A stretch of DNA of 32,000 bases from Erysipelotrichaceae bacterium (lineage in GTDB: Bacteria; Bacillota_I; Bacilli_A; Erysipelotrichales; Erysipelotrichaceae): positions 150,001 through 182,000 of the forward strand of contig JAUVVC010000001.1 in the NCBI GenBank assembly GCA_030604855.1, read 5' to 3'. The position numbers and the translations under genes were made by a program. Below are positions 13,311-32,000 of this stretch, in pieces. The notes beneath the pieces were generated by a model. That model saw only the letters and a program-made list of their open reading frames with translations, was not told the DNA's origin and ran no database searches. Positions within the stretch are counted from its first letter, which is position 1. Each line of letters begins with the position of its first letter.

Positions 13311-13371
13311 CTAATGATAAAGCAGAAGTAGAATTGGAATTTGTGTTGGATTATAAATGCAAATTTAGTTT

Positions 13372-13398
13372 AGAAAAAAAGTACTTTGTACAAGTACT
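13372..13398 (-). terminator. intrinsic terminator of the EcsC-like gene (minus strand)
   Basis: On the minus strand, AAGTACTT-gtaca-AAGTACTT (8-bp stem) is followed by TTTTTTT. The stem starts within the stop codon. Confidence 0.7.
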
Positions 13399-14267
13399 TA
13401 AGCCGAGGTTATATCAATGATGTTATATTTATTTTCCAAAAATCTTTTCTTATAAAGTCGATTGGTTGTGTTGATAACTCGTGTTATGTAACCATAGTTA
13501 AATAACCCACCCACCACAGCTCCAATAAATGGAATGCCTTGTATCATCTTTGTTTTTGATAAACGTACACCCTGTGATGCTGCAAAGTTCTTTGCTATCT
13601 GAGGGAGTAAAAACTTACTCCCCATTTCATTTAATTGTTTATATGTGTTCCTCTTTATTGCTATTTTAAGTGCATTCATTTCAAGCAAGAGCTCCGTTTT
13701 ACCGCCTAGTGAAATAAAATCAGAGAAAGCCATTGCTTTTAACATAAATGCTTGCTCGAAATCACTTTCAGGATTAAATCCGTAACATGAGCAAATTTGT
13801 TGTTGGACACGTGCGAGTAAACTAAAAAACACTGGAATTTCTGCAAGTGTCGATTCAAGTCCGCCAATTCCAAAACCAGCTCCTTCAACTGCTGAAGCAA
13901 TTTTATTTTGATCTGCTATCTTCTTAACATGATGCTCAATTGTATTTGCGTTAAAGCTGTTTAGCTGATCAAAAGAGTCAACCTTTAATGCTCTTAAGAT
14001 ATAACTTTTATCATAAGTGTACTTTATATTATCGTGTGTAAATTGGAATGCACCAGCAATTGCGACTTGTAGTGTTTCTTGAACCTTTTTTGACAGATCA
14101 CTGTCGGTTAAAGGTTTAAATGTTCTCGATAATGGTATGGTTACAGGCTTTGCAAGTTCCCCAACCCTCTTAAATGTTCTATTCACAATACTATGCTCAC
14201 GTTTATTAGTGTATTCCACTTCCCAGTGCTTTAGTTCTTCTAAGGCTCTAGAATCGTCAATATTCAT
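13398..14267 (-). CDS. EcsC-family-like protein
   Basis: 289 aa. The general pattern (N-terminal ...ELKHWE..., central glycine-rich AVEGAGFGIGGLES, C-terminal IPFIGAVVGGLFNYGY) resembles the EcsC family. GGGGG ribosome-binding site 7 nt upstream. No ecsAB genes are nearby. Confidence 0.5.
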   Translation of the reverse strand: MNIDDSRALEELKHWEVEYTNKREHSIVNRTFKRVGELAKPVTIPLSRTFKPLTDSDLSKKVQETLQVAIAGAFQFTHDNIKYTYDKSYILRALKVDSFDQLNSFNANTIEHHVKKIADQNKIASAVEGAGFGIGGLESTLAEIPVFFSLLARVQQQICSCYGFNPESDFEQAFMLKAMAFSDFISLGGKTELLLEMNALKIAIKRNTYKQLNEMGSKFLLPQIAKNFAASQGVRLSKTKMIQGIPFIGAVVGGLFNYGYITRVINTTNRLYKKRFLENKYNIIDITSA

Positions 14268-14442
14268 TATGGATCCCCCGTTGTTATGTAACTATTATAC
14301 TTAATATTGTTTAAGAACGAATTAAAAAATGTTGGAATATCATTACTTCAATGTCCATGATAGGTATGTGTCCTTAATTATGTACTTGAATTTGTTTAGT
14401 CTTAATATTTCGTTTATGTTGTTTTAAGGAGGGATGTAGTAT

Positions 14443-14529
14443 ATGAAGATTCTTAAAAATATACAAATAATTCATCTGTTACCAGTATTTTTTGTGCTTA
14501 ATATTATCTTCAACAGTGTTCCACAATAG
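14443..14529 (+). CDS. possible 28-aa hydrophobic micropeptide
   Basis: Strong AAGGAGGG at 14426-14433, 9 nt before ATG 14443. Product is MKILKNIQIIHLLPVFFVLNIIFNSVPQ, with stop TAG at 14527-14529. It lies in the intergenic region upstream of the SNF2 gene. No homology support is possible here. Confidence 0.25.
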   Translation: MKILKNIQIIHLLPVFFVLNIIFNSVPQ

Positions 14530-14655
14530 AAATATCGATATTAAAATTAAAGTTTTTGATAGGTTTATTTACTTAATACTCACAAAAACACAAGGTTTTA
14601 ACATGTTTAACAGTGTTATAATTAATTCAATGATGTTTTTGTGGGGGGTATGATC

Positions 14656-17600: not shown

Positions 17601-17877
17601 TCATCCTAAGAAAATCTTAGATGCGTTGAAGCTGATGGCAGTCGGTCGTAAAGAACCGATTGAACAGTTAGTGAATCAATTCAACCTTGAGACACGCAAT
17701 GGAAACAACATGTCTAAATACACCAATCTACTCGAGAAAGCTGTTTTTGACATTCAAGGTCGAGTTGAGGAAAAGGGGATTGATTCCTTATTCAAACTTG
17801 GTAAGTCTTCATTGATTGATAAGCAAATCTCCGGACTTAGTGATTTTGAATTGGTTACTTTCATGGTGATCGCATGA
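14656..17877 (+). CDS. SNF2-family helicase with an N-terminal degenerate PLD/HKD-like domain
   Basis: - GLGKT (motif I) at 15493-15507.
- DESH (motif II) at 15751-15762.
- LSATPVNN (motif III).
- SEGQNLQ...HWNP...QRFGRIDRIGS (motifs V/VI).
- The N-terminal ~200 aa ends in FYIHEQTPSFLVNGSSLSFS, which resembles an HKD motif with K replaced by Q (15058-15066).
- The start is taken as ATG 14656, 7 nt after a G6 tract. GTG 14641 and ATG 14650 are alternatives. Confidence 0.85.
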   Translation: MQYPLDNLKQGSVSQFLKDNIQKDSELFVVSPMFTIYAFDELKEILRDVKKVRFLFNEPTFIRRLQNNQKEVREFKLEMAKREKNVSEFPYEINLKNNLDQNQVAAECYRMIDKKMDVRSVTTSNTVQTSNFYIHEQTPSFLVNGSSLSFSREGLGYYNRPNFTFNMVSSEPEVLNVFKGMMDDIWNNESMVHDVKDTLLSYILNLYKENSPELVYYLTLYQIFGEKLNSMDEMARIKERTGISKTKIWNMLYNFQHDAVVGAIKKLELYNGCIIADSVGLGKTFEALAIIKYYELRNDRILVLAPKKLRANWAGFKQNSIYNPLVDDRFNYDVLFHTDLSREAGYSGEIDLSKLNWGNYDLVVIDESHNFRNKPNAPERKTRYQKLMEDIIQSGVKTKVLMLSATPVNNGFTDLRNQIMFITEDKDDAFQENAGIKSINETLRIAQTRFNDWAKQTNDKRKVEELQKSLDFDFYNLLNTVTIARSRKHIQKYYETTGIGEFPTRLKPISIKTNIDIKGNFLDFSKINNEILRLKLPIYSPLLYLLPIKRDEYEQEYKQVVQEGKSAFFQSDRERNLVNLMRVNLLKRLESSVNSFALTLERILNNVNSTLDKLNIVQDFSEFSEEMDDEELDDLEIGKTVKVKLKDMDQKRYEEDLLEDQRIIKYLLEMSRQVKAKDDAKLNRLIQEIENKILNPINPNNRKVIVFTAFSDTAVYIYEHIHRYFLEHHGVYSGIVTGSDMVKSNVPKIRNGFEEILAYFSPRSSKMNQKIQEIDLLIATDCISEGQNLQDCDYLINYDIHWNPVRIIQRFGRIDRIGSTNKSIQLVNFWPNIELDEYINLENRVRNRMAMVDLAATGEDDLLNAESKNLQYRSEQLKQLQSDVIDLEDLTGGISITDLTLDEFLMALDQYMKANPDVLESYPTGVHAITDIPNVIRDEFEPGVVYCLKERKFDRNEVASNSLYPFHLVYVKEDGSILYGHDHPKKILDALKLMAVGRKEPIEQLVNQFNLETRNGNNMSKYTNLLEKAVFDIQGRVEEKGIDSLFKLGKSSLIDKQISGLSDFELVTFMVIA

Positions 17878-18623
17878 GTTGGATGGAGGCTTTGAATCTA
17901 CCAAAGTCATGTTTGATTCAGAAGCGGATTCCTCTGAAGAAACTGGTAGAACATAGTACGCTCAAGCAGAAACAACTCATTGAGCAAACAATTTCATCTG
18001 TTACGCTTGTTGCCTTGATTGATGAGGAAACGTCGCGCATAAGGGCTTATGTGGATGCTTATGAGAATTATCAAGCCTTCTTTATCTTGGAGATAACGAG
18101 CAAACGATTTCCATTAAGTTCAGAGGTGTACGGCTTACTACATGGAATGTTTCCAAACCCAACCATACTGTATTCAATTTACGAGAATAGGATTCAACTC
18201 TCGAGTGCTTTAAAGCGAATCAATTTGAATAACGCTGAGCAAACGATTGTAGAAGAAGTTTATATTACACCAACATTAACGATTAATGAGGAATTCATAA
18301 ACTATATAAGTCAGATCAATTATCAGAGAGTAAAAGTATCAAACCTCAAAGAATACTATTCGAAGTATTCACAAATCATTCAGTTGAGTCAGATTATTGA
18401 GGACATGAATCAATATCCAAGTATTAATGTTGATGTAGAGTTATTGCAGAAGTTGGTCGAAGATATCAAGAATATTCAAGTTTCAATTAAATTAAATGAA
18501 GCTGAAAATCGAAAAGAGAAGAGTCTAGCAAGACGTATGGATCTGCACATGCAGATCAAAATAGATAGAAAGCGATTAGAAGCGTTACAAAAACAAACAA
18601 TGGAGGTCTTATGTCAGAGTTAA
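17874..18623 (+). CDS. DUF4391-like protein
   Basis: The ATGA overlap with the SNF2 stop indicates translational coupling. Its size, its N-terminal ...LPKSCLIQKRIPLKKL... pattern and its position between a helicase and a methyltransferase fit the DUF4391 family. Assignment is from memory of the family pattern. Confidence 0.6.
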   Translation: MSWMEALNLPKSCLIQKRIPLKKLVEHSTLKQKQLIEQTISSVTLVALIDEETSRIRAYVDAYENYQAFFILEITSKRFPLSSEVYGLLHGMFPNPTILYSIYENRIQLSSALKRINLNNAEQTIVEEVYITPTLTINEEFINYISQINYQRVKVSNLKEYYSKYSQIIQLSQIIEDMNQYPSINVDVELLQKLVEDIKNIQVSIKLNEAENRKEKSLARRMDLHMQIKIDRKRLEALQKQTMEVLCQS

Positions 18624-20506
18624 GAATAGAAAAACTGTCAATGGAGAGTGTTGATATCACTAAAGAGAACATTGAGAAAATCAAGGAACTTTTTCCACAA
18701 GTCGTTACGGAAGGAAAGATTGATTTTGATGTACTTAAAGAAATACTAGGCGAACAAATCGAGTCTAGAAATGAACGTTATCAATTTACTTGGAGTGGTA
18801 AATCAGATTCCATTCGTTTTGCTCAACGCCCATCTACTGGAACGTTAAGGCCTGACAAAGAATCTAGTAAAAACTGGGATGCAACTGAGAATCTTTACAT
18901 TGAAGGAGATAACCTTGAAGTGTTAAAGCTTCTTCAGAAGTCCTATCACAGTAAAATAAAAATGATTTATATTGATCCTCCATATAACACTGGTGGGGAC
19001 TTTGTGTATAAAGATGATTTTAAAGATAGTATTAAGAACTACAAAGAACAAACCAATCAAACTTTAAGAGCAAATCCTGAAACAAGTGGAAGATATCATA
19101 CAGATTGGTTAAATATGATGTATCCTAGATTGATGTTGGCAAAAAACTTACTTTCTGATGATGGAATAATATTTATCAGCATTGATGATAATGAAGTTGA
19201 TAATTTGAAAAAGATTTGTGTAGAAGTTTTTGGTGAAACGAATTTTGTAGCGGATTTAATTTGGACTAATCATGAAGGTGGAGGGAGCTCTGACAGTAAA
19301 CTTTTTAGAATTAAGCATGAACACATACTCTGCTTCTCAAAGTCAATAAATTTACTAGAAATTCTTGGTGTAGAAGTAAGTAATGAAGATCGATACAAGT
19401 CTTCAGATCAGTATGTTGCTATTAGAGGCAAATACTATCTTCAAAAATTAGGGATGGGATCTATTCAATACTCAAATTCACTGGACTATCCAATAACCGT
19501 ACCTGATGGTACTATGGTCACCCCAACTGATAATAATGGTGGGAAAAAAGCATGTTGGAGATGGTCTAAAACAAAGTTCGAATGGGGGTTAAAAATGGGT
19601 TTTATTGAGTTTAGAATGGACTCTAATCGAAAATGGATAGTCTATACAAAACAATATTTAAAATGTGATAATGAGGGAAACATTATTGAAAGAACCCAGA
19701 GACCAATGGGTATTATTAGTAACTACTCAAGTACCCAAGGTTCAAAAATGCTTGACTTCTTAGGTTTAAGCTCATTTTTCAATTATGCAAAGCCAATTGA
19801 ATTATTAAATTATCTACTTAATCGAGTTGATTCAAGTGATTGTATAACGTTAGATTTCTTCTCTGGTTCTGCTACTACCGCCCACTCCGTCATGCAACTT
19901 AATGCAGAAGATGGAGGTAATCGTAAGTTTATCATGGTTCAATTGCCTGAGAAGACAGATGAGAAATCAGAAGCATTCAAAGCAGGATATGAAAATATCT
20001 GTGAGATTGGTAAAGAACGCATACGTAGAGCTGGAGATAAGATTAAGAATGAATTAATTGAGAAACGCAACAAGCAAGGTATGCTTGAAGATACGATTGA
20101 TCCTGAACAATTGGATATTGGATTTAAAGTCTTTAAGTTGGATACGAGCAATTTGAAGACATTTGATAGTACATCCAAAGACTTGGAGAATATTTTCTCT
20201 GAAGATGTGTTCTTACCTGAACGTTCAAGTCTCGATATTTTGTATGAGATTCTATTGAAATATGGTGTGTTCGATAAGCCAGTTGATGTGATTCAAATCA
20301 ATGGTAAAGAAGCATTTAGCATCGCAATGAATCAGACAATCGTGTATATCAACCAAACGATTACCGAAAGTGATGTTTTGGAGATTGCTAGACTAGCACC
20401 ACGAGAAGTCATTTTTGATGAACGTGGTTTTGTTAATGATAATGATAAGATCAATGCGTTGAAACGATTGGAAACAGCTGGTGTAGAGAAAGTCGCAACA
20501 ATTTAG
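18611..20506 (+). CDS. mod: Type III-like (beta-class) DNA methyltransferase, Mod subunit
   Basis: DPPY (motif IV) at 18974-18985 precedes DFFSGS (motif I, FxGxG) at 19853-19870. This is the beta-class order, with a long variable region between the motifs. GGAGG ribosome-binding site. 13-nt overlap with the preceding gene. Confidence 0.85.
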   Translation: MSELRIEKLSMESVDITKENIEKIKELFPQVVTEGKIDFDVLKEILGEQIESRNERYQFTWSGKSDSIRFAQRPSTGTLRPDKESSKNWDATENLYIEGDNLEVLKLLQKSYHSKIKMIYIDPPYNTGGDFVYKDDFKDSIKNYKEQTNQTLRANPETSGRYHTDWLNMMYPRLMLAKNLLSDDGIIFISIDDNEVDNLKKICVEVFGETNFVADLIWTNHEGGGSSDSKLFRIKHEHILCFSKSINLLEILGVEVSNEDRYKSSDQYVAIRGKYYLQKLGMGSIQYSNSLDYPITVPDGTMVTPTDNNGGKKACWRWSKTKFEWGLKMGFIEFRMDSNRKWIVYTKQYLKCDNEGNIIERTQRPMGIISNYSSTQGSKMLDFLGLSSFFNYAKPIELLNYLLNRVDSSDCITLDFFSGSATTAHSVMQLNAEDGGNRKFIMVQLPEKTDEKSEAFKAGYENICEIGKERIRRAGDKIKNELIEKRNKQGMLEDTIDPEQLDIGFKVFKLDTSNLKTFDSTSKDLENIFSEDVFLPERSSLDILYEILLKYGVFDKPVDVIQINGKEAFSIAMNQTIVYINQTITESDVLEIARLAPREVIFDERGFVNDNDKINALKRLETAGVEKVATI

Positions 20507-20516
20507 GTGGTATGAT

Positions 20517-23486
20517 ATGGAGCTGAAATTTAGTATTCAGCCGTATCAAACAGATGCGGTTAATTCCATTGTTCGAATCTTTGAAGGAATGGAAATCAAG
20601 CAGTCACAATTCACCATAGATATCTCTCAAGACTTAGGAAGCGTGAGTGGCTTTGCATTAGAAGGTCAAGCTGTATCGTATTTAACAGGTTTTTCTAATA
20701 AATGCACACTTACAAATCATGAGATTCTGCTTAATGTACGCAAAATACAAGACGATAATAACATTCGTATGTCAACGACTTTGGGAAGTCGAGACTTTTC
20801 AATTGAAATGGAAACGGGTACAGGCAAAACATACGTCTATACCAAAACGATATTAGAACTGAATAAGCTTTATGGAATGACAAAGTTTATAATAGTTGTT
20901 CCTAGCATTGCGATCAAAGAAGGTGTGTATAAGAGCTTTCAGATTACCGAAAGTCATTTTAGAGCACACTATGACAACGTAATCTACAACTACTTTATTT
21001 ATGATTCTAATCGACTCGAAAGAATCCAAAATTTCGCGACGAGTTCAAATATTGAAGTCATGATCATTAACATCGATGCCTTTAAAAAGAGTGAGAATAT
21101 CATTAATCGTCCTAATGATCGACTTTCTGGAAACAAGCCAATTGATTTAATTTCAAGTACAAATCCAATTGTTATTATCGATGAGCCTCAATCTGTAGAC
21201 AACACTACAAAATCCAGCGAAGCGATTGATACACTAAGACCATTGGCTAAGCTCCGATATTCTGCAACTTACCGAAAGGGTAAGGAGTTTAATATGATGT
21301 ATCGCTTAACACCAGTGGATGCTTATCATCAAAACCTAGTAAAACACATTGAAGTATCTTCAATCATCGAAGATCAACCAACACATCTTGCTTATGTAAA
21401 ACTCATATCAATCAATGTGAAAAATGGTTACTCCGCAGTCATTGAGATCAATCAGCTATCTAAGAACAATGAAGTCAAACGGAGTAAAGTAACTGTAAGA
21501 GTTGGAAGTGATTTATGGGAAAGCTCAGGTCAATTGGATTATTATAAAGATCAGAACTTTATTGTGGATGACATCGATGCATTCGAGGGACAAGAGAGTA
21601 TTCAATTCTTGAATGGTGAGATATTAAAAATTGGCCAAAGTATAAATGAATCCAATCCAACCATATTGAAACGTGCTCAAATTCGTGAAACTATTTTCCA
21701 ACACTTGAAGAAAGAGAAACACTATTTATCGAAAGGGATAAAAGTGTTGAGTCTTTTCTTTTTGGATGAGGTTAAGAATTATCGAGTGTATAAAGATGAC
21801 GGATCTGTCGAAAAAGGGGAATATGCTCAGTGGTTCGAGGAAGAATACGAGAAGCTGATCAATGGTCAATTCAAGTATTTGAAAGATGCGTTTCCGAACG
21901 TAAACTTTAATTCAGCAGATATACACGATGGTTACTTCTCGATGGATAAGAGAGGGAAGTACGTTAATACTAAGACTGGTGAGGCTGCGGACGATGAGAC
22001 AGCTTATCACCTCATCATGGTAAATAAAGAAAGATTGCTAAGTTTAGAAGAACCTAGACGCTTTCTATTTTCACATTCTGCACTTAAAGAAGGTTGGGAT
22101 AATCCCAATGTTTTTCAAGTATGTACGCTTATCGAGTCAAAGGATACAATGACTAAAAGACAAAAGATTGGACGAGGTTTACGTTTGTGTGTTGATCAAA
22201 GTGGAGAACGCGTCTTAGATATGAATTACAACAAACTTTGTGTCGTTGCCAATGAATCCTATTTTGATTTTGCATCGACTTTACAAAAAGAGTTTGAAGA
22301 TGAAGGATTCAAGTTCGGAATTGTTGAATCTCAAAGCTTTAAGGGATTGTATGTCCATACAGCAGACGATGATAAGTTGATCATTTCAAACGAAGATTCA
22401 AGTAAATTACATAAGTATCTTATAGAGCAAGGTTACTTGAAACAGAATGGTAAAGTTGACGATAAATTCTTTATCGATGTAAGCAGTAATACTTTTGAAT
22501 TACCGACTCAATATGAACCATTCAAAGAAAAGATCATAGCGGAGATTAAACATCTCTCACGTGAGATCGAAATCAAGAATGTTAAAGAGAAGATTGAAGT
22601 AAAACTGAACAAAGAAGTGTATTTATCTGAGAACTTTAGAGTTCTTTGGGATAAGATCAAGCATAAGACTTTGTATAAAGTGAACATCGACATTAAGAAA
22701 TTGATAACATTATGTAAATATAAAATAGACTCTATGCCAACAATCAAATCAGACTTGATAATTAAAAGTGGTGGAGATGTTGAGATTGGTAGTGGCGGTA
22801 TTACGGTAAATGAACATATCTTGGGTAGAGAAATGGATATGGGAGACTTTGAAAATCTAACTTATCCTGATGTCTTAAGAAGACTACAAGACAATACGCA
22901 ATTACTTAGAAAAACAATTCTAGAAATCCTACGTAGTACAAAACGTTTTGATGATTTCTTTAAGAATCCTGAGGTGTTCATTTCTCGTGTTTCCACAATT
23001 ATCAATGAAGTTAAGAGAGAACTTACCTCCGAAGGACTTCAGTATTTCAAGTTGGATGAGGAGTATGTTCAGACTCAGATTTTTGATGATTCTGAGTTGT
23101 TTGGCTACAAAGACTATAATGTGCTGGATATATCTGATCGAAAGAATGTATTTGACCATGTAATCTTTGATTCAATCATTGAGAAACAGTTTGCGTTGGA
23201 TGCAGAGAAAGATAATGATGTTGTTTTGTATGCGAAACTTCCAAGTGAGTTCAAGATTGATACACCTTTTGGCAAGTATAATCCAGACTGGGTTGTTGTT
23301 ATTCAGAAGGATAATGATGATAGGCTTTATTTTGTGGCAGAAACAAAGGGGACTTCTTTAGAATCTAGTCTTCGAGGTTCTGAAATGAATAAAATAAACA
23401 GTGGTAGAAAACACTTTGAAATCGTTGACAGTGAACTTAAATATGAGTTAACCACAAGCTTAAAAATGCTAAAAAGAGAAATGTAA
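20517..23486 (+). CDS. res: Type III restriction enzyme Res subunit (SF2 helicase plus C-terminal PD-(D/E)xK nuclease)
   Basis: GTGKT at 20817-20831 and DEPQ at 21180-21191. ...FSHSALKEGWDNPNVFQ and QKIGRGLR (motif VI) are typical of Res. C-terminal NPDW (D at 23286-23288) ... VAETKG (23340-23348) forms the nuclease motif. Confidence 0.85.
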   Translation: MELKFSIQPYQTDAVNSIVRIFEGMEIKQSQFTIDISQDLGSVSGFALEGQAVSYLTGFSNKCTLTNHEILLNVRKIQDDNNIRMSTTLGSRDFSIEMETGTGKTYVYTKTILELNKLYGMTKFIIVVPSIAIKEGVYKSFQITESHFRAHYDNVIYNYFIYDSNRLERIQNFATSSNIEVMIINIDAFKKSENIINRPNDRLSGNKPIDLISSTNPIVIIDEPQSVDNTTKSSEAIDTLRPLAKLRYSATYRKGKEFNMMYRLTPVDAYHQNLVKHIEVSSIIEDQPTHLAYVKLISINVKNGYSAVIEINQLSKNNEVKRSKVTVRVGSDLWESSGQLDYYKDQNFIVDDIDAFEGQESIQFLNGEILKIGQSINESNPTILKRAQIRETIFQHLKKEKHYLSKGIKVLSLFFLDEVKNYRVYKDDGSVEKGEYAQWFEEEYEKLINGQFKYLKDAFPNVNFNSADIHDGYFSMDKRGKYVNTKTGEAADDETAYHLIMVNKERLLSLEEPRRFLFSHSALKEGWDNPNVFQVCTLIESKDTMTKRQKIGRGLRLCVDQSGERVLDMNYNKLCVVANESYFDFASTLQKEFEDEGFKFGIVESQSFKGLYVHTADDDKLIISNEDSSKLHKYLIEQGYLKQNGKVDDKFFIDVSSNTFELPTQYEPFKEKIIAEIKHLSREIEIKNVKEKIEVKLNKEVYLSENFRVLWDKIKHKTLYKVNIDIKKLITLCKYKIDSMPTIKSDLIIKSGGDVEIGSGGITVNEHILGREMDMGDFENLTYPDVLRRLQDNTQLLRKTILEILRSTKRFDDFFKNPEVFISRVSTIINEVKRELTSEGLQYFKLDEEYVQTQIFDDSELFGYKDYNVLDISDRKNVFDHVIFDSIIEKQFALDAEKDNDVVLYAKLPSEFKIDTPFGKYNPDWVVVIQKDNDDRLYFVAETKGTSLESSLRGSEMNKINSGRKHFEIVDSELKYELTTSLKMLKREM

Positions 23487-23536
23487 TTTTATACCAGTAT
23501 TTCTTTTTTCAAACGAGAACTTAGAGAGGAGCTGCT

Positions 23537-24469
23537 TTGAAGTTAAAAGAAGATGTTATTGAAATTGAATATAAAGAAAAGGACTACTCAGAACTAGAAA
23601 ACATTTTAATCAAATGTAAAATGAGATGTGCAGGACTTTTAGAACAAAATGATCTAAAGTATCGTTTTGATATTCTTGAAAAATCAATAGAGAAGTCTAA
23701 AGAGATAAAGAATGTTGATTTTGAATACTTATCCAGACTGCATGAACTAAAATCTATAATACTTTTCTCAGAACTTGGGAGTTTGACAATCTCAAATGAC
23801 GCTAAACATGAAAAGGGTCCGGATCTATTATTTAACAACGTGTATATTGAGTGTGTTACAGCAAATGTTGGGAACAAGGATAATTATAAGGAACTTAAAA
23901 AAAGTGGATTTGAAAAATATGGTTCACAAGTCATTGATTATGGTGAGAAGTCCAGACAGATGATTTTGAGATTTACAACAGCATTAAAGTCTAAAGTAGA
24001 TCATTGTAATAATGTTTGGAATGATGAGTATCAGCCATTATGTATTTTTTTACACTTAGGCAGATTCTCAAATCAATATCATCAAGGAGAATTCCTGGAC
24101 GAAATGACGAGGTTTTTAGTAGGAAAAGGATCATTAACTTTAGCATATGATGTAAAACAGGGAAAAATTGTTAATGTATATTATCAAAAAAATGAGAACA
24201 TAAAGAATAATAACTTAGCAGATGTAAATGTGAATTTCTTTGGTGATAGCAAGAATAGTATTGTTTCTGCTGTAATTATTTCAAGTGCTTATTACTCAGA
24301 AGATTATGATCTAGAAAATACAGTTGTTTTTACAAACTATAATGCAAAGCATGAGATTAATGCATATTACTTTAATAACTTTGTTATTTGGACAATGAAT
24401 GATTTAGGTGAATATGTACCAACCAAAGATGGAAAGCAGCTAAAACTAAAGGACATAAAGATTATATGA
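23537..24469 (+). CDS. hypothetical 310-aa protein with a possible divergent PD-(D/E)xK-like core
   Basis: TTG start 5 nt after GAGAGGAG. It sits 50 nt after res with no terminator. The only motif-like stretch is HEKGPDLLFNNVYIECVT (D at 23822-23824, E at 23849-23851). Its stop overlaps the next gene's start (ATGA). Confidence 0.55.
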   Translation: MKLKEDVIEIEYKEKDYSELENILIKCKMRCAGLLEQNDLKYRFDILEKSIEKSKEIKNVDFEYLSRLHELKSIILFSELGSLTISNDAKHEKGPDLLFNNVYIECVTANVGNKDNYKELKKSGFEKYGSQVIDYGEKSRQMILRFTTALKSKVDHCNNVWNDEYQPLCIFLHLGRFSNQYHQGEFLDEMTRFLVGKGSLTLAYDVKQGKIVNVYYQKNENIKNNNLADVNVNFFGDSKNSIVSAVIISSAYYSEDYDLENTVVFTNYNAKHEINAYYFNNFVIWTMNDLGEYVPTKDGKQLKLKDIKII

Positions 24470-25320
24470 CAACTAAAAGCCTATCATTCTACTACCCAGA
24501 AAGTAGTAATGCTTCAAGCCTGAAGATTTTCAAAGAGATTGGGACTGCCCTAACTGGCTTTTACTTTAAACGCTCAAGTCTTCCAGAAGTCGTTAAAGAA
24601 CCGAACGCTGAGAACTATGCAATCTATTTCTTATTTGATGATAGTGATAATGAACCGATTGTGTATATTGGTCAGTCTACCAATGGCGTCAATAGAATCA
24701 AAGAACATGTGAAGCTCAAAGAATTCTGGAGCTATTGCATCATGATTGTATCTGATAACAATAGCTTCGATAAATCAGCAATCGATTATTTAGAATATCA
24801 TTTCGTCCAAAAGTTTAAGAACACAGTTTATAAACTTGAGAATGTGGATGGTCGCAACAAAGAACCACAAATCGATATCTTTACAAGAACCACATATAAC
24901 AACTATTGCAACCAAATAGCATTCTTACTAGAAGCTAATGGTATTGACTTCTTAGAGAAGAAGAGTAGCAAAGAAAAAGACTTTCAGTATTTTGATGCGA
25001 GTAAAGGTGTAAAAGCCAAACTATATTTAAAAGACGATGTGTTTTTTGTATGCAAAGATTCTGTGATCACATTGCCAAATGAATCTTCTAAGCTTTGGAG
25101 TGATGAAGGGAAATTTTACAATAAACTGGTGAACAAGTTAAATCATTTGATTGAAGAAGGCAAAGCTAAACTAAAAGATAATGATTCGACTAAAGCAATC
25201 TTACTTGAGAATATACCTTTCAAGAGTCCGAGCTCAGCTGCTGAGTTGTGCTCTGGATCATCTGAGAATGGATGGCAGTTTTGGAAGGGCTTATCTTCAA
25301 TTCGAAAGAACGAAGACTAA
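24466..25320 (+). CDS. GIY-YIG nuclease-family protein with a C-terminal DUF4357-like domain
   Basis: AIYFLF...VYIGQS (24661-24672)...RIKEH...LEYHF follows the GIY-YIG order. The C-terminal ...FKSPSSAAELCSGSSENGWQFWKG matches the DUF4357 signature (F.SPS.AA....G...NGW..WK). Confidence 0.7.
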   Translation: MTTKSLSFYYPESSNASSLKIFKEIGTALTGFYFKRSSLPEVVKEPNAENYAIYFLFDDSDNEPIVYIGQSTNGVNRIKEHVKLKEFWSYCIMIVSDNNSFDKSAIDYLEYHFVQKFKNTVYKLENVDGRNKEPQIDIFTRTTYNNYCNQIAFLLEANGIDFLEKKSSKEKDFQYFDASKGVKAKLYLKDDVFFVCKDSVITLPNESSKLWSDEGKFYNKLVNKLNHLIEEGKAKLKDNDSTKAILLENIPFKSPSSAAELCSGSSENGWQFWKGLSSIRKNED

Positions 25321-25344
25321 ATGTTTGAAAAGGGGGGACAGATA

Positions 25345-26220
25345 ATGCAGACATGGGTAATTTCATGTAGTTTAAAAGAGTATGATGTGATTGGTGCCTT
25401 TCGAGAGTTTGATGCTATTGACTGGAAGCAAAGCGCAAACTTTGAAGTTAGGGATATAATCTTCATTTATGTAAGCCATCCTATCATGAAGTTGTTTTTC
25501 AAATGTGTGGTTGAAGAAATAGGACTTGAAACCAGAAGTCAAAAGGATCGTGAATTTGTTAGTGGGATAAATAGTTTTGAAGATAAAGGACGCTACATGC
25601 GCTTAAAGCGTATAACAACTTTTGAAGAGCCAATTCCTTTTAAATTGCTCAGTGAGAATGGACTTAAAGGCAATGTACAAGGCCCAAGAAGAATATCAGG
25701 AATGTTACTTGAATTTATAGAATCTTATCTAGAAAAATCACGAGTAAATAATGTTTCGATACTTGAAGACAATAGACTGAACGAGAGTATCCAAAAGAGT
25801 CTTACTCGCAATATTAATCCGGTGAAGTATGTACCTAAGCCAAAAGTAAAACCACAGCATAATTATGTTGATGGTGTTAAAGTGTATCCTCGATGTCGTG
25901 AAGTAGCAATAAACGCTCTAATAAGAGCGGATTTTAAGTGTGAATGTGCAGTTGATCATTCCACATTTAAATCTAAGTTTAATGGACTTCCTTATATGGA
26001 AGCACATCACCTCATTCCACTAGCATATCAAGATGAATTTGATTTCTCGCTAGATGTAGAAGCCAATGTAGTTTCATTGTGTAGTCACTGCCATAATGAA
26101 TTTCATTATGGACAGGAAGCAAATAGTAATCTTTTGAGATTGTTAAAAATGAGGCAGAATGAATTAATGGATTGTGGAATAATAATTGAAGTTAGCCTTA
26201 TTTTGGAGTTTTACAAATGA
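25345..26220 (+). CDS. PUA-like (EVE/ASCH-type) N-terminal domain fused to an HNH endonuclease
   Basis: Start at ATG 25345, 7 nt after a G6 tract. N-terminus is MQTWVISCSLKEYDVIGAFREFDAIDWKQSANFEVRDIIFIYVS. The C-terminal HNH has CECA...EAHHLIPL (HH at 26005-26010) and CSHCH (26080-26094)...NEFHYG. Confidence 0.7.
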   Translation: MQTWVISCSLKEYDVIGAFREFDAIDWKQSANFEVRDIIFIYVSHPIMKLFFKCVVEEIGLETRSQKDREFVSGINSFEDKGRYMRLKRITTFEEPIPFKLLSENGLKGNVQGPRRISGMLLEFIESYLEKSRVNNVSILEDNRLNESIQKSLTRNINPVKYVPKPKVKPQHNYVDGVKVYPRCREVAINALIRADFKCECAVDHSTFKSKFNGLPYMEAHHLIPLAYQDEFDFSLDVEANVVSLCSHCHNEFHYGQEANSNLLRLLKMRQNELMDCGIIIEVSLILEFYK

Positions 26221-27344
26221 GTGATAATCTTAAACAATTAGCAAATGATGAATTTTTGTCTGAAGATGAAATAATGAGTCTTCTAGAGCAGAGGGATATA
26301 AACATAGCAAACAATAATCTTATTTCAAAGAGAAACTTAGAAAGTATAACAACTTTGAATGCAAGACAACAAATGTATATGAGTCTATTTAAAAAGGGAT
26401 ATTTAGTGGAATACCCTCACGGTATAGTATCGCAATATGGTGCGATAAATTTGGCTCCAACTCATTTCAGAGGAGAGAATAGAATCTTTTCGGGTCCTTG
26501 TTATTCTTCATTAGCAAGAAGGGTTGCAAAACTTACTGAGATTCAACGCAGAGCACAAATTGTTATCGCGAATCTCAGGGTAAAAGTTTTTGAGGAATTT
26601 CTTTTGCAATTGAATATGTATAGAGATTGGGATATTAGCGAAATAAATGTTGAAACAATTGCACAACATTATGGATTTAATACAAGTCATCTTGATATTA
26701 CTGATGATTTTGCGGTAGCATTATTCTTTGCATGTTGTAAAGCAAATAAGTCAGGTAAATATAGACCTTTTACTGAGAAAGACATTGAAGCTTGTGGAAA
26801 GTATGGTGTAATCTATCGCAAGAACAGACTTGGCTTAGTTAATGAAAATGGTGAAGCATATAAAGACATTGTTCAGATTGGATATCAACCATTTACACGC
26901 TGCCATCTACAAAGAGGCTATTATGTTGAGACAAATCTTGAGAAAGATTTAGTAGATTTTGATTTGATTAAAACCATTGGATTCAAGAAACAGTTATTTT
27001 TAAGAACAACAAAACTCTCAAAGTTTATTTATGAAAAAATGAATAATGGGAAAGCCATTATTGATTATGAACTTTTAGATATAGCGAGCCCAATAATTAA
27101 GAGAATAAAGAATGAGACTCGATTCACAATAAATGAATTAACCACCGTATTAAATATTTTGGGATGGAAACTTAACTCCGATGATTTTGAAGAACTTGCT
27201 AGATGCCAAATTAGTGTAGGTGATTTTAAAAGAAAGTTTAATAGGTCTATTTTAGATTCAATAAATTCAAAATGGAGTTTATCGAGATATATAGAAGATA
27301 ACAGTTTTTATCCAACGACTAGTTTAATCAAATATCCGATGTGA
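26217..27344 (+). CDS. FRG-domain protein
   Basis: IAQHYGFNTSHLDITDDFAVALFFAC (from 26661) matches the FRG-domain core (aQHyG.pT.lLD.T....vAl.FA). GGAG ribosome-binding site 8 nt upstream. ATGA overlap with the HNH gene. Confidence 0.7.
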   Translation: MSDNLKQLANDEFLSEDEIMSLLEQRDINIANNNLISKRNLESITTLNARQQMYMSLFKKGYLVEYPHGIVSQYGAINLAPTHFRGENRIFSGPCYSSLARRVAKLTEIQRRAQIVIANLRVKVFEEFLLQLNMYRDWDISEINVETIAQHYGFNTSHLDITDDFAVALFFACCKANKSGKYRPFTEKDIEACGKYGVIYRKNRLGLVNENGEAYKDIVQIGYQPFTRCHLQRGYYVETNLEKDLVDFDLIKTIGFKKQLFLRTTKLSKFIYEKMNNGKAIIDYELLDIASPIIKRIKNETRFTINELTTVLNILGWKLNSDDFEELARCQISVGDFKRKFNRSILDSINSKWSLSRYIEDNSFYPTTSLIKYPM

Positions 27345-27447
27345 ACAAAAATGGTACATTCCAATTAATGATTATTTAGAGTGAATGCGTATCTAATAAT
27401 AGTGTAGTATCTTATTCTAATCAGGAATGGAATATTTGGGGGGACGC

Positions 27448-28530
27448 ATGAGCATCATCAAAGGCATCATCAGTTTAATGACGCAAGATTTCTCAGAACC
27501 AATCATTGTTAAAGACAGTTGTGAAGCCAAGGTTACCTTAGATAACCTTTTAAGCATTTCTTCTAAACTGAATGATGAAGGTGAACAAGTTATTGAACAA
27601 GAAATCAAATTACTGCAGTCTGGAATCTATGGGGAAGACTCCATTGCGTTTGAACTGAAGAACAGCCATTTACCACTTGTGGTTTTAAGAGACTTACAGT
27701 TATCTTATGCTGGACTATCTGCTCAAATTGATTTCCTTGTACTGACTCCAAAAGTAGGAATCGTCATTGAGTGCAAGAATATGATTGGAAATATTGAAGT
27801 CAATGCCAATGGAGATTTCATACGAACGTTTTCATATGGCAAACGTTTCAAGAAAGAAGGCATCTATAGCCCAATCACCCAGAATCGACGGCACTTAGAA
27901 TTGCTTCGAAAAATAATGGTTGAGCAAAAAGGTAGTATCCTATCCAGAATCTTTTCAGATTTGCATTTTGAACAATACTTCCATCCAATAGTGGTTGTGG
28001 CGAATCCTAAATCCATCCTAAATATCAAATATGCCAAAAAAGAAGTAAAAGACAAAATCATTCGAGGAGATCAACTCATCGAGTACATCCGAAGATGTAT
28101 CATTAACTCAGACATGATTGCTCGATCTTACGACGATCTTGCAAAAATGGCTGAAATGTTTCTGGATCATCACCATGCAAAGAGAATTGATGTAGAGAAA
28201 ACGTATGGTCAATGGATAGAGAATAGTATCGTTGACGTTCCACCAGTATCTAATGTAAAAAATGAGTCTATGGGTGTAGTCAGTAAGTCGTTAAATATTG
28301 AAGAACATCCAGTTTATATCGCTTTAAAGAATTATCGGTTATTAAAGAGTCGAAGTGAGAATATCAAAGCATTTTATATCTATAGTAATAGTCAACTTGA
28401 ATCACTTGTCCAATCAATGCCTAAAAGTATCGAAGAACTACTTAAGGTAAGTGGATTCAACCAAGTGAAGTGTGAGAAGTATGGCAAAGAGATCATTGAG
28501 ATAATACTTAAAAACACTTTAGATAATTAA
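27448..28530 (+). CDS. NERD-domain nuclease with a C-terminal HRDC-like domain
   Basis: GEDSIAFELK...QIDFLVL (D at 27730-27732)...IVIECKN (ECK at 27769-27777)...SPITQNRRH is the NERD / PD-(D/E)xK pattern. The C-terminal YIALKNYRLLKSRSENIKAFYIYSNSQLESLVQSMPKSIEELLKVSGFNQVKCEKYGKEIIEII aligns well with the RecQ-type HRDC consensus. Start is ATG 27448, after a G6 tract. Confidence 0.75.
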   Translation: MSIIKGIISLMTQDFSEPIIVKDSCEAKVTLDNLLSISSKLNDEGEQVIEQEIKLLQSGIYGEDSIAFELKNSHLPLVVLRDLQLSYAGLSAQIDFLVLTPKVGIVIECKNMIGNIEVNANGDFIRTFSYGKRFKKEGIYSPITQNRRHLELLRKIMVEQKGSILSRIFSDLHFEQYFHPIVVVANPKSILNIKYAKKEVKDKIIRGDQLIEYIRRCIINSDMIARSYDDLAKMAEMFLDHHHAKRIDVEKTYGQWIENSIVDVPPVSNVKNESMGVVSKSLNIEEHPVYIALKNYRLLKSRSENIKAFYIYSNSQLESLVQSMPKSIEELLKVSGFNQVKCEKYGKEIIEIILKNTLDN

Positions 28531-28717
28531 CCTGAAGTATTATGAAACTACTTTATAAATTTGAATCAAATGAATAATTAAACAAACAAAAAAGGAGTGA
28601 CCTATAGTCCTCCTCCTTTGCCCCAACGGGGATGCCTATACAGGCCGTTTACATTAAAATTATACCACAGCATAAATCCGTTTCAATGTTAAATATCCAG
28701 AAAAGGAATACACATTC

Positions 28718-29698
28718 ATGCCCCTAACCATCATCCGTCAAGACATCACAACAATGCATGTCGATGTTATCGTCAATGCCGCAAATACACAACTCAGAAA
28801 AGGGGGTGGAGTTTGTGGTGCGATCTTCAGTGCAGCAGGTGCAGAAAACCTACAAACCGCATGTGATGCCTATGCACCTATAAAAGTTGGTGGAGCAGTC
28901 TTAACTTCTGGCTTCAAACTTCCAGCACGATACATCATTCATGCTGTGGGACCTGTCTACAAAGAAGGGAAGTCAAATGAAGAAGAATTACTATCGAATG
29001 CTTACTGGAATAGTTTGGAACTTGCGGTTAAACATGAATGTACCAGCATCGCATTCCCACTGATCTCCAGTGGAATCTATGGATATCCTAAAGATGAAGC
29101 ACTGCATGTTGCGATTAGGACGATCCGTAGCTTCCTTGAATCCCATGAATTGATGGTCTATCTTGTCTTGTTTGACAAAGCCAGCTTAAAGATCAGTCAA
29201 GAACGTTTAGGTGATATTCAAAGCTATATTGATGAAAACTATGTAGAGACCCATACTTTTGGAAGAGGTCGCTTCAATGAACCGGATCTTGTTCTGTATA
29301 AGCAAGCATCTTATACAAAACCATCAGTTAAAGACATCGAAGACTGGGTCAAATTGGTCGACCAATCCTTCTCCGAAACACTCTTGCATTGGATCGATGT
29401 CAAAGGGATGAAGGATGTGGACGTTTATAAACGTGCCAACATGGATCGTAAGTTATTCTCAAAGATACGATCCAACAAGGATTATACTCCTAATAAACGA
29501 AATGTTTTGGCTTTGTGCATTGCGATGCGACTAGGTATAGATGAAACAAATGCATTATTGGAGTGTGCAGGTTATGCACTCTCATCCAGTCAACTCTTTG
29601 ATGTGATCATACGCTATTACATTGAAAACAAGATCTATGACATTGATGAGATTAATGCCGTATTATTTCAGTATGATCAAGCTTTACTGGGTGTTTAG
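28718..29698 (+). CDS. MacroD-type macrodomain protein with a C-terminal HTH-like domain
   Basis: VNAAN (NAAN at 28775-28786), GGGVCGAIF, HAVGPVY and SSGIYGYP are the ADP-ribose-binding and hydrolase motifs. The C-terminal ~130 aa (..VYKRANMDRKLFSKIRS......NKRNVLALCIAMRLGIDETNALLECAGYALS) looks like a helix-turn-helix module. Confidence 0.8.
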   Translation: MPLTIIRQDITTMHVDVIVNAANTQLRKGGGVCGAIFSAAGAENLQTACDAYAPIKVGGAVLTSGFKLPARYIIHAVGPVYKEGKSNEEELLSNAYWNSLELAVKHECTSIAFPLISSGIYGYPKDEALHVAIRTIRSFLESHELMVYLVLFDKASLKISQERLGDIQSYIDENYVETHTFGRGRFNEPDLVLYKQASYTKPSVKDIEDWVKLVDQSFSETLLHWIDVKGMKDVDVYKRANMDRKLFSKIRSNKDYTPNKRNVLALCIAMRLGIDETNALLECAGYALSSSQLFDVIIRYYIENKIYDIDEINAVLFQYDQALLGV

Positions 29699-29721
29699 CG
29701 ATTACAGAAAGCATAATAAAA

Positions 29722-29898: not shown

Positions 29899-30348
29899 CT
29901 AAAGTCCAAAGGACCTAAGCAAGTTGCGCTCCATCTTTTTAAGATTCTCCGGATTTACTAATCCCATGTTGAATTTTAGTCGAACTTTACTTAGTGTCCG
30001 AATATCTTCAAATTGAACAATTGAATCAAATGAGAGAAACGGATAATCCACTTTTTTCATAAGATACTGTGTTGGTAAGAGTTTGATCGTACCATCTGGT
30101 TTTTTCTTGTTTTCTGCATCAGTCATGATCGCAACAATAACGTTTGTACTTGTTAAATTGTTCTGATCGTTAGAGATTATTAAAACGGGTCTCGAATTTG
30201 ATTTTTCATGTCCAACATTTTCACCAAGTTCAGCGAAATATACGGTGCCTCTAACGATTTTACTGTTTACAAATCGATGAAAACTTTCATTTATGGATAC
30301 ACTTTTACCAAACCAATCAATCGCTTCTTTGTGTCTTGTATATGTCAT
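29899..30348 (-). CDS. MazF/PemK-family toxin-like protein with a ~30-aa N-terminal extension
   Basis: IVRGTVYFAELGENVGHEKSNSRPVLIISND aligns with the MazF/PemK N-terminal core (..GD.Y...L.P..G.E....RPVL..S.D). AGGGGTGGG ribosome-binding site. No other Met could serve as a shorter start. Confidence 0.7.
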   Translation of the reverse strand: MTYTRHKEAIDWFGKSVSINESFHRFVNSKIVRGTVYFAELGENVGHEKSNSRPVLIISNDQNNLTSTNVIVAIMTDAENKKKPDGTIKLLPTQYLMKKVDYPFLSFDSIVQFEDIRTLSKVRLKFNMGLVNPENLKKMERNLLRSFGL

Positions 30349-30368
30349 TAACCCACCCCTGTTTAATT

Positions 30369-30503: not shown

Positions 30504-31505
30504 TTAAGACTCAGATACTCGTCCTTCTAATATCAACTCCTGCTTATCCGCATCCAGTGTCGCCAACACTCCTATCGGTAAGGTAAGCATCGGATGCGTA
30601 TGTGCACAATCAAACTCTGCGAGAATTGGAAATGTGGGTTTACCAATGACTTCCAATAACAACTCATAGGGTCTACGACCTGTACCCATGTCTTTGAACA
30701 GTTCATGCTTACCTAAGATCAAACCACCAATGCGATCGAATACACCATTGACTTTGAGATGAGCGAAGTTACGTTCCAATGTCGCAATATCTTTTAGTGA
30801 ATCCTCAATGAGCAGGATATCTCCTTGCTTGATTTCAGGCATGTATTCAGAACCCCAGATGCCACCCATGGTATTGAGATTGCCACCGATGAGTCGACCG
30901 GTATGATGACCTGAATGTACGGTGATTAATTGGTTTGTTTGTGGAAGTTTACTTCGATCTTGAAGTGACCAATCGATATACTCCTCTGTCCACTCTTTTG
31001 GAGTAGGAAGAGGATAAGGATACTTAATTTGACCCGATACAATCGCTTCAAAACTTGCGAAAGTTTCGTCCACATACGGAGGAAACTCCCCGAATGATGC
31101 GACTAAAGCAGGACCATAATAGGTCACCAAACCTGTTTTCGCATAGATGCCTAAGAGGAGTGCCGTCACATCTGAATACCCTACAAAGATCTTCGGATCT
31201 TTTTTGATGGCTTCATAATCCAAATAGGGAAGAAGTGAATTGGAGTTCATACCACCAATCATCGACATGATGCAGCGTACTTCAGGATCACGAATCAATT
31301 CGTTTAACTCTTCCACACGTTCTTGAATAGAACCAGAGCGATAGAAATCACGTTGTCCTGTTAAAGAGCCTTCCTTGATGATATAGCCCTTGGCTGATAA
31401 ATAAGCCTTGGCACGTTCAAAACGTGCTAGCGCAAAAGCACTGGCAGGTGAAGAAGGGGAATAAACAGCGATGATATCGCCTTTACGTAAGGGTTGTGCG
31501 AACAT
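30504..31505 (-). CDS. LD-carboxypeptidase / MccF-like S66 peptidase
   Basis: SPSSP near the N-terminus, GYSDVTAL (nucleophile Ser), and a C-terminal ...DCAHTHPMLTLPIG (His). Start is taken at ATG 31505 (GGAG 8 nt upstream, product MFAQPLRKGD...) rather than the ORF-track start at 31538. Confidence 0.8.
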   Translation of the reverse strand: MFAQPLRKGDIIAVYSPSSPASAFALARFERAKAYLSAKGYIIKEGSLTGQRDFYRSGSIQERVEELNELIRDPEVRCIMSMIGGMNSNSLLPYLDYEAIKKDPKIFVGYSDVTALLLGIYAKTGLVTYYGPALVASFGEFPPYVDETFASFEAIVSGQIKYPYPLPTPKEWTEEYIDWSLQDRSKLPQTNQLITVHSGHHTGRLIGGNLNTMGGIWGSEYMPEIKQGDILLIEDSLKDIATLERNFAHLKVNGVFDRIGGLILGKHELFKDMGTGRRPYELLLEVIGKPTFPILAEFDCAHTHPMLTLPIGVLATLDADKQELILEGRVSES

Positions 31506-31626
31506 ATATGGTCTCCAGATATTGAATTCATTATACAAGAAAACGTCCTAAATTAAATGTCGCTTCGCAAGCGACCTTTCAATTGTTCCCAGCGATTAAA
31601 CTATGAACATAAAGGAGCAATACATT

Positions 31627-32000
31627 ATGAAAAACAACGCTACAGAATTGGTCTTCATCTTAGACCGCAGTGGATCCATGGCAGGTTTGGAAAGGGATAC
31701 GATTGGTGGTTTCAACGCCATGCTTAAGAAACAACAAGCAATCGAAGGCGAATGCCGCATCACCACCGTCCTCTTTGATAATCAGATAAACATCCTCCAT
31801 GATCGTTTAGACATCCAAGCCATTGGATGTTTAACTGAAAAAGATTACCAAGTGGGAGGTTCCACTGCACTCTTGGATGCGATCGGCTCAACGATAAATA
31901 AGATCGGTAATGTCCAGAAGCACAGTGCTTATGAACATCGTGCATCCAAAGTCCTCTTTGTGATCATCACCGATGGCGAAGAGAACTCCAGTCGAGAATT
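31627..32000 (+). CDS. von Willebrand factor A (VWA) domain protein, 5' part (continues beyond the window)
   Basis: AAGGAG at 31611-31616. Product is MKNNATELVFILDRSGSMAG, with a DxSxS MIDAS motif, then ...GGSTALLDAIG...VIITDGEEN. The frame is open to the window end, so it is absent from the ORF track. Confidence 0.8.
   Translation, partial: MKNNATELVFILDRSGSMAGLERDTIGGFNAMLKKQQAIEGECRITTVLFDNQINILHDRLDIQAIGCLTEKDYQVGGSTALLDAIGSTINKIGNVQKHSAYEHRASKVLFVIITDGEENSSRE

Follow-up and report, generated by a model that had tools for sequence, protein, structure and literature searches.

NrtR regulators combine a Nudix-related N-terminal domain with a C-terminal helix-turn-helix (HTH) and are released from DNA by ADP-ribose; their genes are annotated as enzymes, and palindromic sites lie upstream of the genes that they regulate (PMC2330246). 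At the level of whole loci, predicted anti-ADP-ribosylation systems centred on ARG, whose hosts are actinobacteria, planctomycetes and proteobacteria, bring together Nudix-HTH or WYL-HTH regulators, von Willebrand factor A (vWA) 'chaperones' and, optionally, Macro proteins and nucleases with a restriction-endonuclease fold (PMC9503650, section 3.8). Among defence nucleases, ZwsA is a stand-alone protein with a NERD domain, which also carries VHS, DUF647 and S4 domains and cuts the genomes of RNA phages (bioRxiv 10.64898/2026.04.06.716636). Here we compare these systems with two neighbouring genes in a 32,000-nucleotide (nt) stretch of DNA from an Erysipelotrichaceae bacterium (contig JAUVVC010000001.1, positions 150,001 to 182,000; hereafter the window), one encoding a NERD nuclease with a C-terminal HRDC domain (NERD-HRDC) and the other a macrodomain fused to a C-terminal HTH (Macro-HTH). 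The original prediction had read them as a possible ADP-ribose-linked defence or toxin-antitoxin pair. Our analysis favours, with a probability of about 0.75, a reading in which NERD-HRDC and Macro-HTH are independent modules joined by a recombination hotspot, and in which Macro-HTH regulates a small vWA gene further downstream.

Both open reading frames (ORFs) were recovered as first described: they are co-directional, they are separated by 187 nt, and they sit within a low-GC island beside a type III restriction-modification (R-M) cluster, with several PADLOC candidate genes close by. The NERD-HRDC frame can be opened at 27427 or at 27448, the latter start giving a protein of 360 aa that agrees with the database cluster P0121, and Macro-HTH has 326 aa. 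The conservation of this arrangement was then analysed from both sides. The Macro-HTH sample comprised 80 loci at 51-59% identity, taken with flanks of up to 10 kb from contigs that represent one genome per species (85 Macro loci in total), and its hosts included Bacillota, Chloroflexota, Synergistota, Elusimicrobiota, Actinomycetota and Bacteroidota, most of them belonging to the first two phyla. The NERD-HRDC sample comprised 80 metagenomic loci (0.86 Mb) representing 46 lineages at 80% identity.

Profile searches detected no NERD-HRDC gene within 10 kb of Macro-HTH in any of the 78 loci outside the lineage of the window; among the 85 Macro-HTH loci, the matches came from the window and from a 92%-identical relative (L005) alone. 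The reciprocal search gave the same result, with neither Macro-HTH nor its vWA partner near NERD-HRDC in any of 80 loci, and the sole macro match in these loci was a plain macrodomain at a distance of 7.5 kb, encoded on the opposite strand. Comparing the co-occurrence of the two families, a check that had been proposed for the pairing, therefore revealed no conserved adjacency, an outcome that had been named beforehand as counting against it. It follows that the readings of the two genes as a pair are unsupported, both the one in which the macro protein would serve as a regulator or antitoxin of the nuclease and the one with a logic like that of DarTG, and that the third reading initially offered, unrelated neighbours, is supported. 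We consider it very probable that NERD-HRDC and Macro-HTH do not form a dedicated pair.

Within the lineage we compared eight cargo variants of one chromosomal hotspot in related strains. The Macro gene was kept in all eight, and NERD-HRDC adjoined it in four, was separated from it in two and was absent from two, meaning that the adjacency is broken in half of the variants. The adjacent cases are the window, where the genes next to Macro are FRG and NERD-HRDC; L005, where the TAA of NERD-HRDC is followed directly by the ATG of Macro (0 nt); L166, with type I R-M, Abi_C, a GTPase and NERD-HRDC (12 nt); and L167, with McrBC, IS1595 and NERD-HRDC (12 nt). Abi_2 lies between NERD-HRDC and Macro in L168/L169, and McrBC does so in L165. 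The two variants devoid of NERD-HRDC carry MazG, an SLFN helicase, McrBC and an unassigned gene (L003/L004), or type III R-M, Thoeris ThsA/ThsB, GmrSD and two unassigned genes (L170-L173).

When the window was compared with L003 by blastn, homology was confined to positions 10003-13310, 28712-29697 and 30524-32000, resuming 6 nt upstream of the Macro ATG. Macro therefore marks the edge at which the hotspot stays constant, and NERD-HRDC belongs to the shuffled cargo, which across the variants takes in type I and type III R-M, Thoeris, McrBC, GmrSD and Abi genes. In the related strains the left border consists of GGDEF, Flg_new and a 197-aa gene, and the right border of Macro, an LD-carboxypeptidase on the minus strand and a 214-aa gene. 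Taken as written, the adjacency of NERD-HRDC and Macro is ordinary, the defence hotspot having made neighbours of two genes that are unrelated; the two genes are not worth pursuing as a pair, which saves effort.

A narrower link, restricted to this lineage, would have NERD-HRDC captured into the Macro-HTH transcription unit and co-expressed with it, Macro-HTH for example tuning or buffering the nuclease, with the two families being independent elsewhere. The adjacency in four of the eight variants speaks for such a capture, as does the orientation of the island genes, which are all directed towards Macro; in addition, at the 0-nt and 12-nt junctions of L005, L166 and L167 any separate promoter would have to lie within the coding sequence of NERD-HRDC, and co-transcription of the two genes in these strains is therefore likely. 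However, the closest relative of the NERD-HRDC gene (92% identity) has Abi_2 before Macro, McrBC comes after NERD-HRDC in L165, Macro occurs without NERD-HRDC in two variants, the spacer of the window is strain-specific, and the four adjacent cases may all go back to one ancestral arrangement next to a border gene that stays in place. Coupling of this kind is in our view improbable. As to the spacer itself, the original prediction had noted a weak hairpin in it: the gap is there, the hairpin is not significant (fold z = -1.31), and no terminator-like site was called within the 187 nt.

A toxin-antitoxin system resembling DarTG, with NERD-HRDC as the toxin and Macro-HTH as both antitoxin and autorepressor, would not be without precedent, as HTH-bearing antitoxins and macrodomain antitoxins (DarG) exist, and the two genes lie side by side in an island and are read in one direction. 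Several results stand against it. The adjacency is conserved in neither direction, NERD-HRDC stands alone in 46 lineages, and the Macro domain is nearest to YmdB/MacroD and not to DarG. Nor is there an ADP-ribosyltransferase nearby: as had been stated initially, no DarT-like gene (DUF4433) was matched among the scanned genes of the island, none was matched among the recurrent neighbours of ~80 Macro-HTH loci, and no other ADP-ribosyltransferase was present in either set. Moreover the DNA element that marks the Macro-HTH family, which is described below, is absent upstream of the pair, the single copy in the window being located at 31559. This makes a toxin-antitoxin pair highly unlikely.

The conserved partner of Macro-HTH is a different gene. 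Directly downstream, on the same strand and at position +1 in most loci, lies a gene of a vWA family of ~215 aa, which a hidden Markov model search over all ORFs found in 80 of the 85 Macro-HTH loci and in at least six phyla; two of the five loci lacking it end at a contig edge. Macro-HTH and vWA form a near-obligate two-gene module. On the upstream side of Macro-HTH the neighbours are mixed, falling into 164 families of which none occurs in more than three loci, and downstream of vWA the single recurrent family is ADP_ribosyl_GH, present in six loci, the remainder being ordinary metabolic genes. This DraG-like ADP-ribosylglycohydrolase lies 3' of vWA on the same strand in 6 of ~70 Macro-HTH loci (~8%; for example at 5501-6325 in L032), and its occasional presence there points to ADP-ribosylation stress.

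In the lineage of the window the module is split by the LD-carboxypeptidase and, in this strain, by a MazF-like gene as well, and the vWA gene begins outside the segment to which the original prediction referred. The expectation that any partner would be new was borne out by this gene and not by NERD-HRDC. The vWA proteins carry the MIDAS motif D-x-S-G-S ... T ... D, with D13, S15, S17, T80 and D116 invariant in 24 sequences. They matched no NCBIfam or PADLOC model, and a sequence search of the PDB returned spurious matches only. No description of a module of Macro-XRE and vWA was found in a full-text search of the literature, which is not proof of its absence, and neither Macro-HTH nor vWA had a match in PADLOC-DB 2.0. 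The module therefore appears to be undescribed; it is very widespread and strongly conserved across phyla, and it has no entry in Pfam (for the tail and vWA), NCBIfam or PADLOC.

The module also comes with a DNA element of its own, a 17-bp dyad with the consensus GTCGC-N7-GCGAC. Searched for with the pattern GTCG[CT]-N7-[GA]CGAC, it was present in 77 of the 85 Macro loci, once per locus (78 matches in 1.22 Mb), as against 2 matches in the 0.86 Mb of the NERD-HRDC control loci, and it was missing from all five loci without vWA. Normally the dyad is found 2-20 nt 3' of the Macro stop codon; where Macro and vWA lie apart (the window, L003, L007, L032, L041 and L045), it stays 45-65 nt 5' of vWA. 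An alignment of 68 distinct copies with the promoter region that follows was free of gaps over its first 59 columns. In these 68 copies the outer bases GTCG/CGAC are invariant, the next C is present in 67, the inner positions change symmetrically, and 42 have complementary bases at positions 12 and 14, which an RNA hairpin could not pair.

Exactly 21 nt after the dyad stands a TAnnnT box, of which T43, A44 and T48 are invariant in the 68 sequences; it takes the form TATCCT in 36 of them and also occurs as TATAAT, TATTAT and TATGAT, and in 42 of 68 it is directly preceded by TG. Such a box is characteristic of a -10 element recognised by sigma-A/sigma-70, in many cases an extended one. Reading the 'TGTTATCCT' box as a mere anti-Shine-Dalgarno (anti-SD) sequence was considered and rejected in favour of a -10 element, given the invariant T, A and final T and the TATAAT, TATTAT and TATGAT variants. 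No -35-like hexamer was found before vWA in the 68 sequences, the best match reaching at most 3/6 positions, and the fixed spacing between dyad and box therefore places the centre of the dyad near -42. The geometry of dyad and promoter is conserved across phyla.

Part of this pattern could also be produced by an RNA device, in which the element before vWA would mainly terminate the Macro mRNA or stabilise it by a hairpin, with a further hairpin sequestering the SD, and the tail of Macro-HTH would serve for protein-protein contacts. The inner stem does covary (U-A, C-G, A-U), with 27 cells changed on both sides, a level reached in 0 of 500 shuffles; T-runs are found 3' of the hairpin; and in minimum free energy folds the SD is paired in 74% of the read-through leaders. 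This last value is, however, hardly above that of the shuffled controls (61%), and the case for an SD-sequestering hairpin is too weak to be made. In addition the outer 4 bp are the same in every copy, which one would not normally see in a stem with a structural role only, the complementarity reaches positions 12/14, the invariant TAnnnT box keeps a constant distance that needs no gaps in the alignment, and when the genes are split the element follows vWA and not the 3' end of Macro. No Rfam family matched the dyad element. An RNA device is thus an explanation to which we give little credit.

The XRE-type tail of Macro-HTH is the sole DNA-binding domain in the module. An HTH-like domain had been noted at this C terminus, and it is supported by structure prediction. 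By sequence, the best Pfam match of the tail was HTH_26 with a non-significant E-value of 0.15, only 3 of 150 family members passed HTH_26 at 1e-4, PF13560 was carried by one member, and a search of the PDB with the C-terminal 120 residues gave spurious matches only. The AlphaFold model of the tail (pLDDT 86.8) has a five-helix XRE core followed by two further helices, and all of its top Foldseek matches in the PDB were XRE/Cro-type HTH proteins, among them C.BclI, C.AhdI, C.Esp1396I, CapH-N, DdrO, SinR and 434 Cro, with a target-normalised TM of 0.7-0.8, a probability of 1.0 and a root-mean-square deviation of ~2-3 A over 60-70 residues. The segment predicted to form the recognition helix, YKRANxDRKLFSKIR, does not vary between family members, and neither do the outer half-sites of the dyad.

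A profile of the C-terminal module collected 7787 clusters at 50% identity, in which it was always C-terminal. Among the best 150, those members without a Pfam Macro match that were inspected proved to be N-truncated pieces of Macro proteins or Macro proteins whose linkers are long or whose motifs diverge, apart from one protein in which the C-terminal module is present twice and Macro is missing; the C-terminal module is therefore tied to Macro. The existence of other sensor domains on this HTH module was accordingly rejected, the apparent cases being mostly truncated or long-linker Macro proteins. The representatives P0359, P0381 and P0248 are among the divergent, long-linker or two-module cases; in some members GRGTSRGIY replaces GGGVCGAIF, or the linkers are very long and of low complexity. 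Full-length Macro-HTH matches numbered 2 in 50,697 phage records. The best reading of Macro-HTH is that of a predicted one-component regulator, which delimits the hotspot on its right side in every variant and is not cargo.

The Macro domain itself is unmistakable (Pfam score 138.7 bits for a cut-off of 22; E = 1e-40), its best relatives in the PDB being E. coli YmdB, DR_2288 and human MacroD1/2, and its scores with NCBIfam equivalogs are below their cut-offs. The protein had been said to hold all the MacroD hydrolase motifs. This stands for the ADP-ribose-binding motifs NAAN, GGG and SSGIYGYP, which are invariant across the family alignment, and does not stand for the motif GGGVDGAIH of YmdB/MacroD, which in an alignment to YmdB reads GGGVCGAIF, with Asp replaced by Cys and His by Phe; Cys33 is invariant throughout the family. 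Both the Asp and the His of this motif have been implicated in catalysis by MacroD and YmdB, and viral macrodomains without the Asp are still active. Macro-HTH may therefore still be a hydrolase, and a role mainly in ligand sensing is just as plausible.

We therefore propose the following model of the dyad as an operator, which we favour by a small margin over its negation. A dimer of the XRE-type HTH would bind GTCGC-N7-GCGAC near -42 of the vWA promoter, which has no -35 element. The Macro domain would modulate this binding through its ligand state, according to whether it is occupied by, or turns over, ADP-ribose, O-acetyl-ADP-ribose or a macromolecule that is ADP-ribosylated, and the output would be the level of vWA protein synthesis. 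The location of the site near -42, before a promoter that lacks a -35 element, would fit activation and is reminiscent of class II activators and of the controller proteins of R-M systems, and repression by occlusion would be equally possible.

Within this model the module may have spread horizontally through at least six phyla, the LD-carboxypeptidase having presumably been wedged between Macro-HTH and vWA in the lineage of the window, and the MazF-like gene added in this strain. Possible triggers would include attack by an ADP-ribosyltransferase from a phage or a competitor, or NAD-derived immune signalling. Going one step further, Macro-XRE might be the first macrodomain transcription factor that senses ADP-ribose or ADP-ribosylated macromolecules and switches on a vWA effector or chaperone through the dyad, a suggestion that we put forward tentatively and with the balance somewhat against it. 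If true, it would provide a macrodomain-based transcriptional read-out for bacterial ADP-ribosylation and would link vWA proteins to ADP-ribose signalling. The module yields a defined 17-bp operator and promoter, a directly testable prediction.

Several observations weigh against these conclusions. The canonical Asp and His of MacroD are replaced, and the chemistry of the Macro domain is therefore uncertain. The Foldseek E-values behind the HTH match are weak (0.03-0.3), and the vWA call rests on the MIDAS motif together with sub-threshold Pfam scores (17-18 bits for VWA, cut-off 23.8; 18-19 bits for VWA_CoxE, cut-off 26.4). A T-run follows the dyad in 14 of the 68 loci, so that the dyad could in part be an RNA terminator or hairpin. 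Finally, the short junctions in three related strains, where the two genes are likely co-transcribed, keep a lineage-specific functional link alive, and neither NERD-HRDC nor Macro-HTH is a PADLOC system. With these points included, independence of the two modules, together with regulation of vWA by Macro-HTH, is still the reading that we prefer.

For NERD-HRDC, this reading means a protein that works by itself. The nuclease and its intact D...ECK residues, as well as the RecQ-like HRDC tail, were as first described: NERD (PF08378) scored 61.6 bits in Pfam, for a gathering cut-off of 22.1, and HRDC (PF00570) 61.9 bits, for one of 23.8; the PD-(D/E)xK residues D95, E108 and K110 are shared without exception by 20 aligned homologues; and the PDB matches of the tail are the HRDC domains of RecQ and BLM. 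The combination of the two domains is common to more than 3000 homologues. In PADLOC-DB 2.0 the protein matches the DpdF models through its HRDC tail alone, and a single full-length match was found in 50,697 phage records. Clustering of its neighbours identified no fixed partner, as no family occurred in more than 8 of the 46 lineages and none at a constant position; the near neighbours are mixed and enriched in defence types, with ResIII helicases, AbiEii, an SLFN-type helicase, Mrr, PLD, DUF3427 and NA-iREase. NERD-HRDC is free-standing cargo without a fixed partner. Most likely it acts alone as a PD-(D/E)xK nuclease whose HRDC tail would bind nucleic acid, and its role is likely defensive because it is exchanged alongside known systems in the hotspot. 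It is a reasonable single-gene candidate for phage-defence screens and belongs to a large family of predicted stand-alone nucleases.

The features of the window are collected in Table 1.

Table 1 Features of the NERD-HRDC and Macro-HTH region, with positions counted from the first nucleotide of the window
Feature	Position	Strand	Basis or remark
Variable cargo of the defence-island hotspot	13311..28711	.	blastn against related strains; 7 other variants with different cargo
EcsC-family protein, left edge of the variable region	13398-14267	-	weak PADLOC matches PDC-S29, PDC-S30
SNF2-family helicase (weak DrmD-like matches) and DUF4391, directly 5' of type III Mod, Res	14641-23486		family assignment
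PD-T7-5-like, PDC-S14 (GIY-YIG + DUF4357), HNH (N-terminal half without assignment), FRG/PDC-S15	23537-27344		co-directional
NERD (PD-D/ExK) nuclease with C-terminal HRDC	27448..28530	+	Pfam; free-standing island cargo, candidate single-gene defence nuclease
Strain-specific 187-nt spacer	28531..28717	.	missing in L005, L166, L167
Macro-HTH: Macro (~residues 1-165), variable linker, XRE-type HTH with two extra helices (~205-326)	28718..29698	+	Pfam, alignment, structure models, Foldseek
Orphan MazF/PemK-like gene between Macro and LD-carboxypeptidase	29899..30348	-	Pfam PemK_toxin, E = 2.7e-17
LD-carboxypeptidase (S66), splitting Macro-HTH from vWA in this lineage	30504..31538	-	Pfam Peptidase_S66, S66C
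17-bp dyad GTCGCTTCGCAAGCGAC, predicted Macro-HTH operator	31559..31575	+	pattern search of loci
Predicted -10 hexamer TAAACT of the vWA promoter	31597..31602	+	21 nt after the dyad
Small MIDAS-vWA gene, 5' part, cut by the window end	31627..32000	+	translation begins MKNNATELVFILDRSGSM; family alignment; Pfam weak

The cargo of the window runs in the order EcsC-like, SNF2 helicase, DUF4391, type III Mod, Res, PD-T7-5-like, PDC-S14, HNH, FRG and NERD-HRDC, and the placement of the two genes in an island, as initially proposed, was confirmed by this low-GC stretch of SNF2, DUF4391, Mod/Res and a four-gene chain. The SNF2, DUF4391, Mod and Res genes make up a four-gene variant of type III R-M. 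In the four-gene chain that follows, the stop and start codons overlap or abut at 24466/24469, 25320/25321 and 26217/26220, and the chain resembles a single operon of candidate defence genes. In L003, a strain without NERD-HRDC, the slot adjacent to Macro is occupied by a 225-aa protein (9131-9808) that had no match in Pfam, NCBIfam or PADLOC.

The LD-carboxypeptidase is placed identically in L003, L166, L168 and L170. Between it and Macro there is a second, small variable spot (10064-11889 in L166, 10073-10597 in L167 and 11134-12222 in L170), which in some strains is filled by DUF1643 and/or a 362-aa protein without assignment, in the window by the MazF-like gene, and which is empty in L003. 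The insertion of the MazF-like gene is particular to this strain, positions 29698-30523 being without homology in L003. Its product has an N-terminal extension of ~32 residues, and no antitoxin ORF was found upstream of the gene, where the sole ORF is of 32 aa.

How, then, does the locus compare with the systems described so far? NERD-HRDC resembles ZwsA in combining a catalytic NERD domain with a nucleic-acid-binding domain, and ZwsA is likewise a single-gene system found in defence loci; the difference is that the protein of the window consists of NERD and HRDC and is a candidate nuclease. The tail of Macro-HTH finds its best structural matches in the controller (C) proteins of R-M systems and in CapH, small XRE-type dimers with dyads overlapping -35, which unlike Macro-HTH have no sensor or enzyme domain and differ in both the dyad sequence and the regulated gene. 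With DarTG the locus shares a macrodomain protein that has a C-terminal non-catalytic domain and a defence context, but it lacks DarT, its macrodomain is of the YmdB/MacroD sequence type, its partner is vWA, and its C-terminal domain is an HTH.

The ARG-centred loci are closer. They too contain enzymes that remove ADP-ribose in the absence of a linked ADP-ribosyltransferase, together with an HTH regulator and vWA, and they are the nearest analogue of the Macro-HTH/vWA module at the level of whole systems. In the module, however, a single polypeptide comprises both Macro and HTH, ARG is an optional member (6 loci), and most hosts belong to Bacillota or Chloroflexota. In functional terms the closest analogue of the Macro-HTH protein is NrtR, with which it shares a one-component design that joins an HTH to a domain drawn from a family of ADP-ribose enzymes, the annotation of its gene as an enzyme, and a palindromic site in a linked promoter. 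The two differ in their sensor, which is Nudix in NrtR and Macro in Macro-HTH, where the HTH is moreover of the XRE/Cro type with two extra helices; in their targets, NrtR controlling NAD biosynthesis and Macro-HTH a single vWA gene by prediction; and in their sites, the motifs of NrtR being variable whereas the predicted operator of Macro-HTH is nearly invariant across phyla. The Macro-HTH/vWA module would extend the known idea of one-component sensing of ADP-ribose by a variant of its own.

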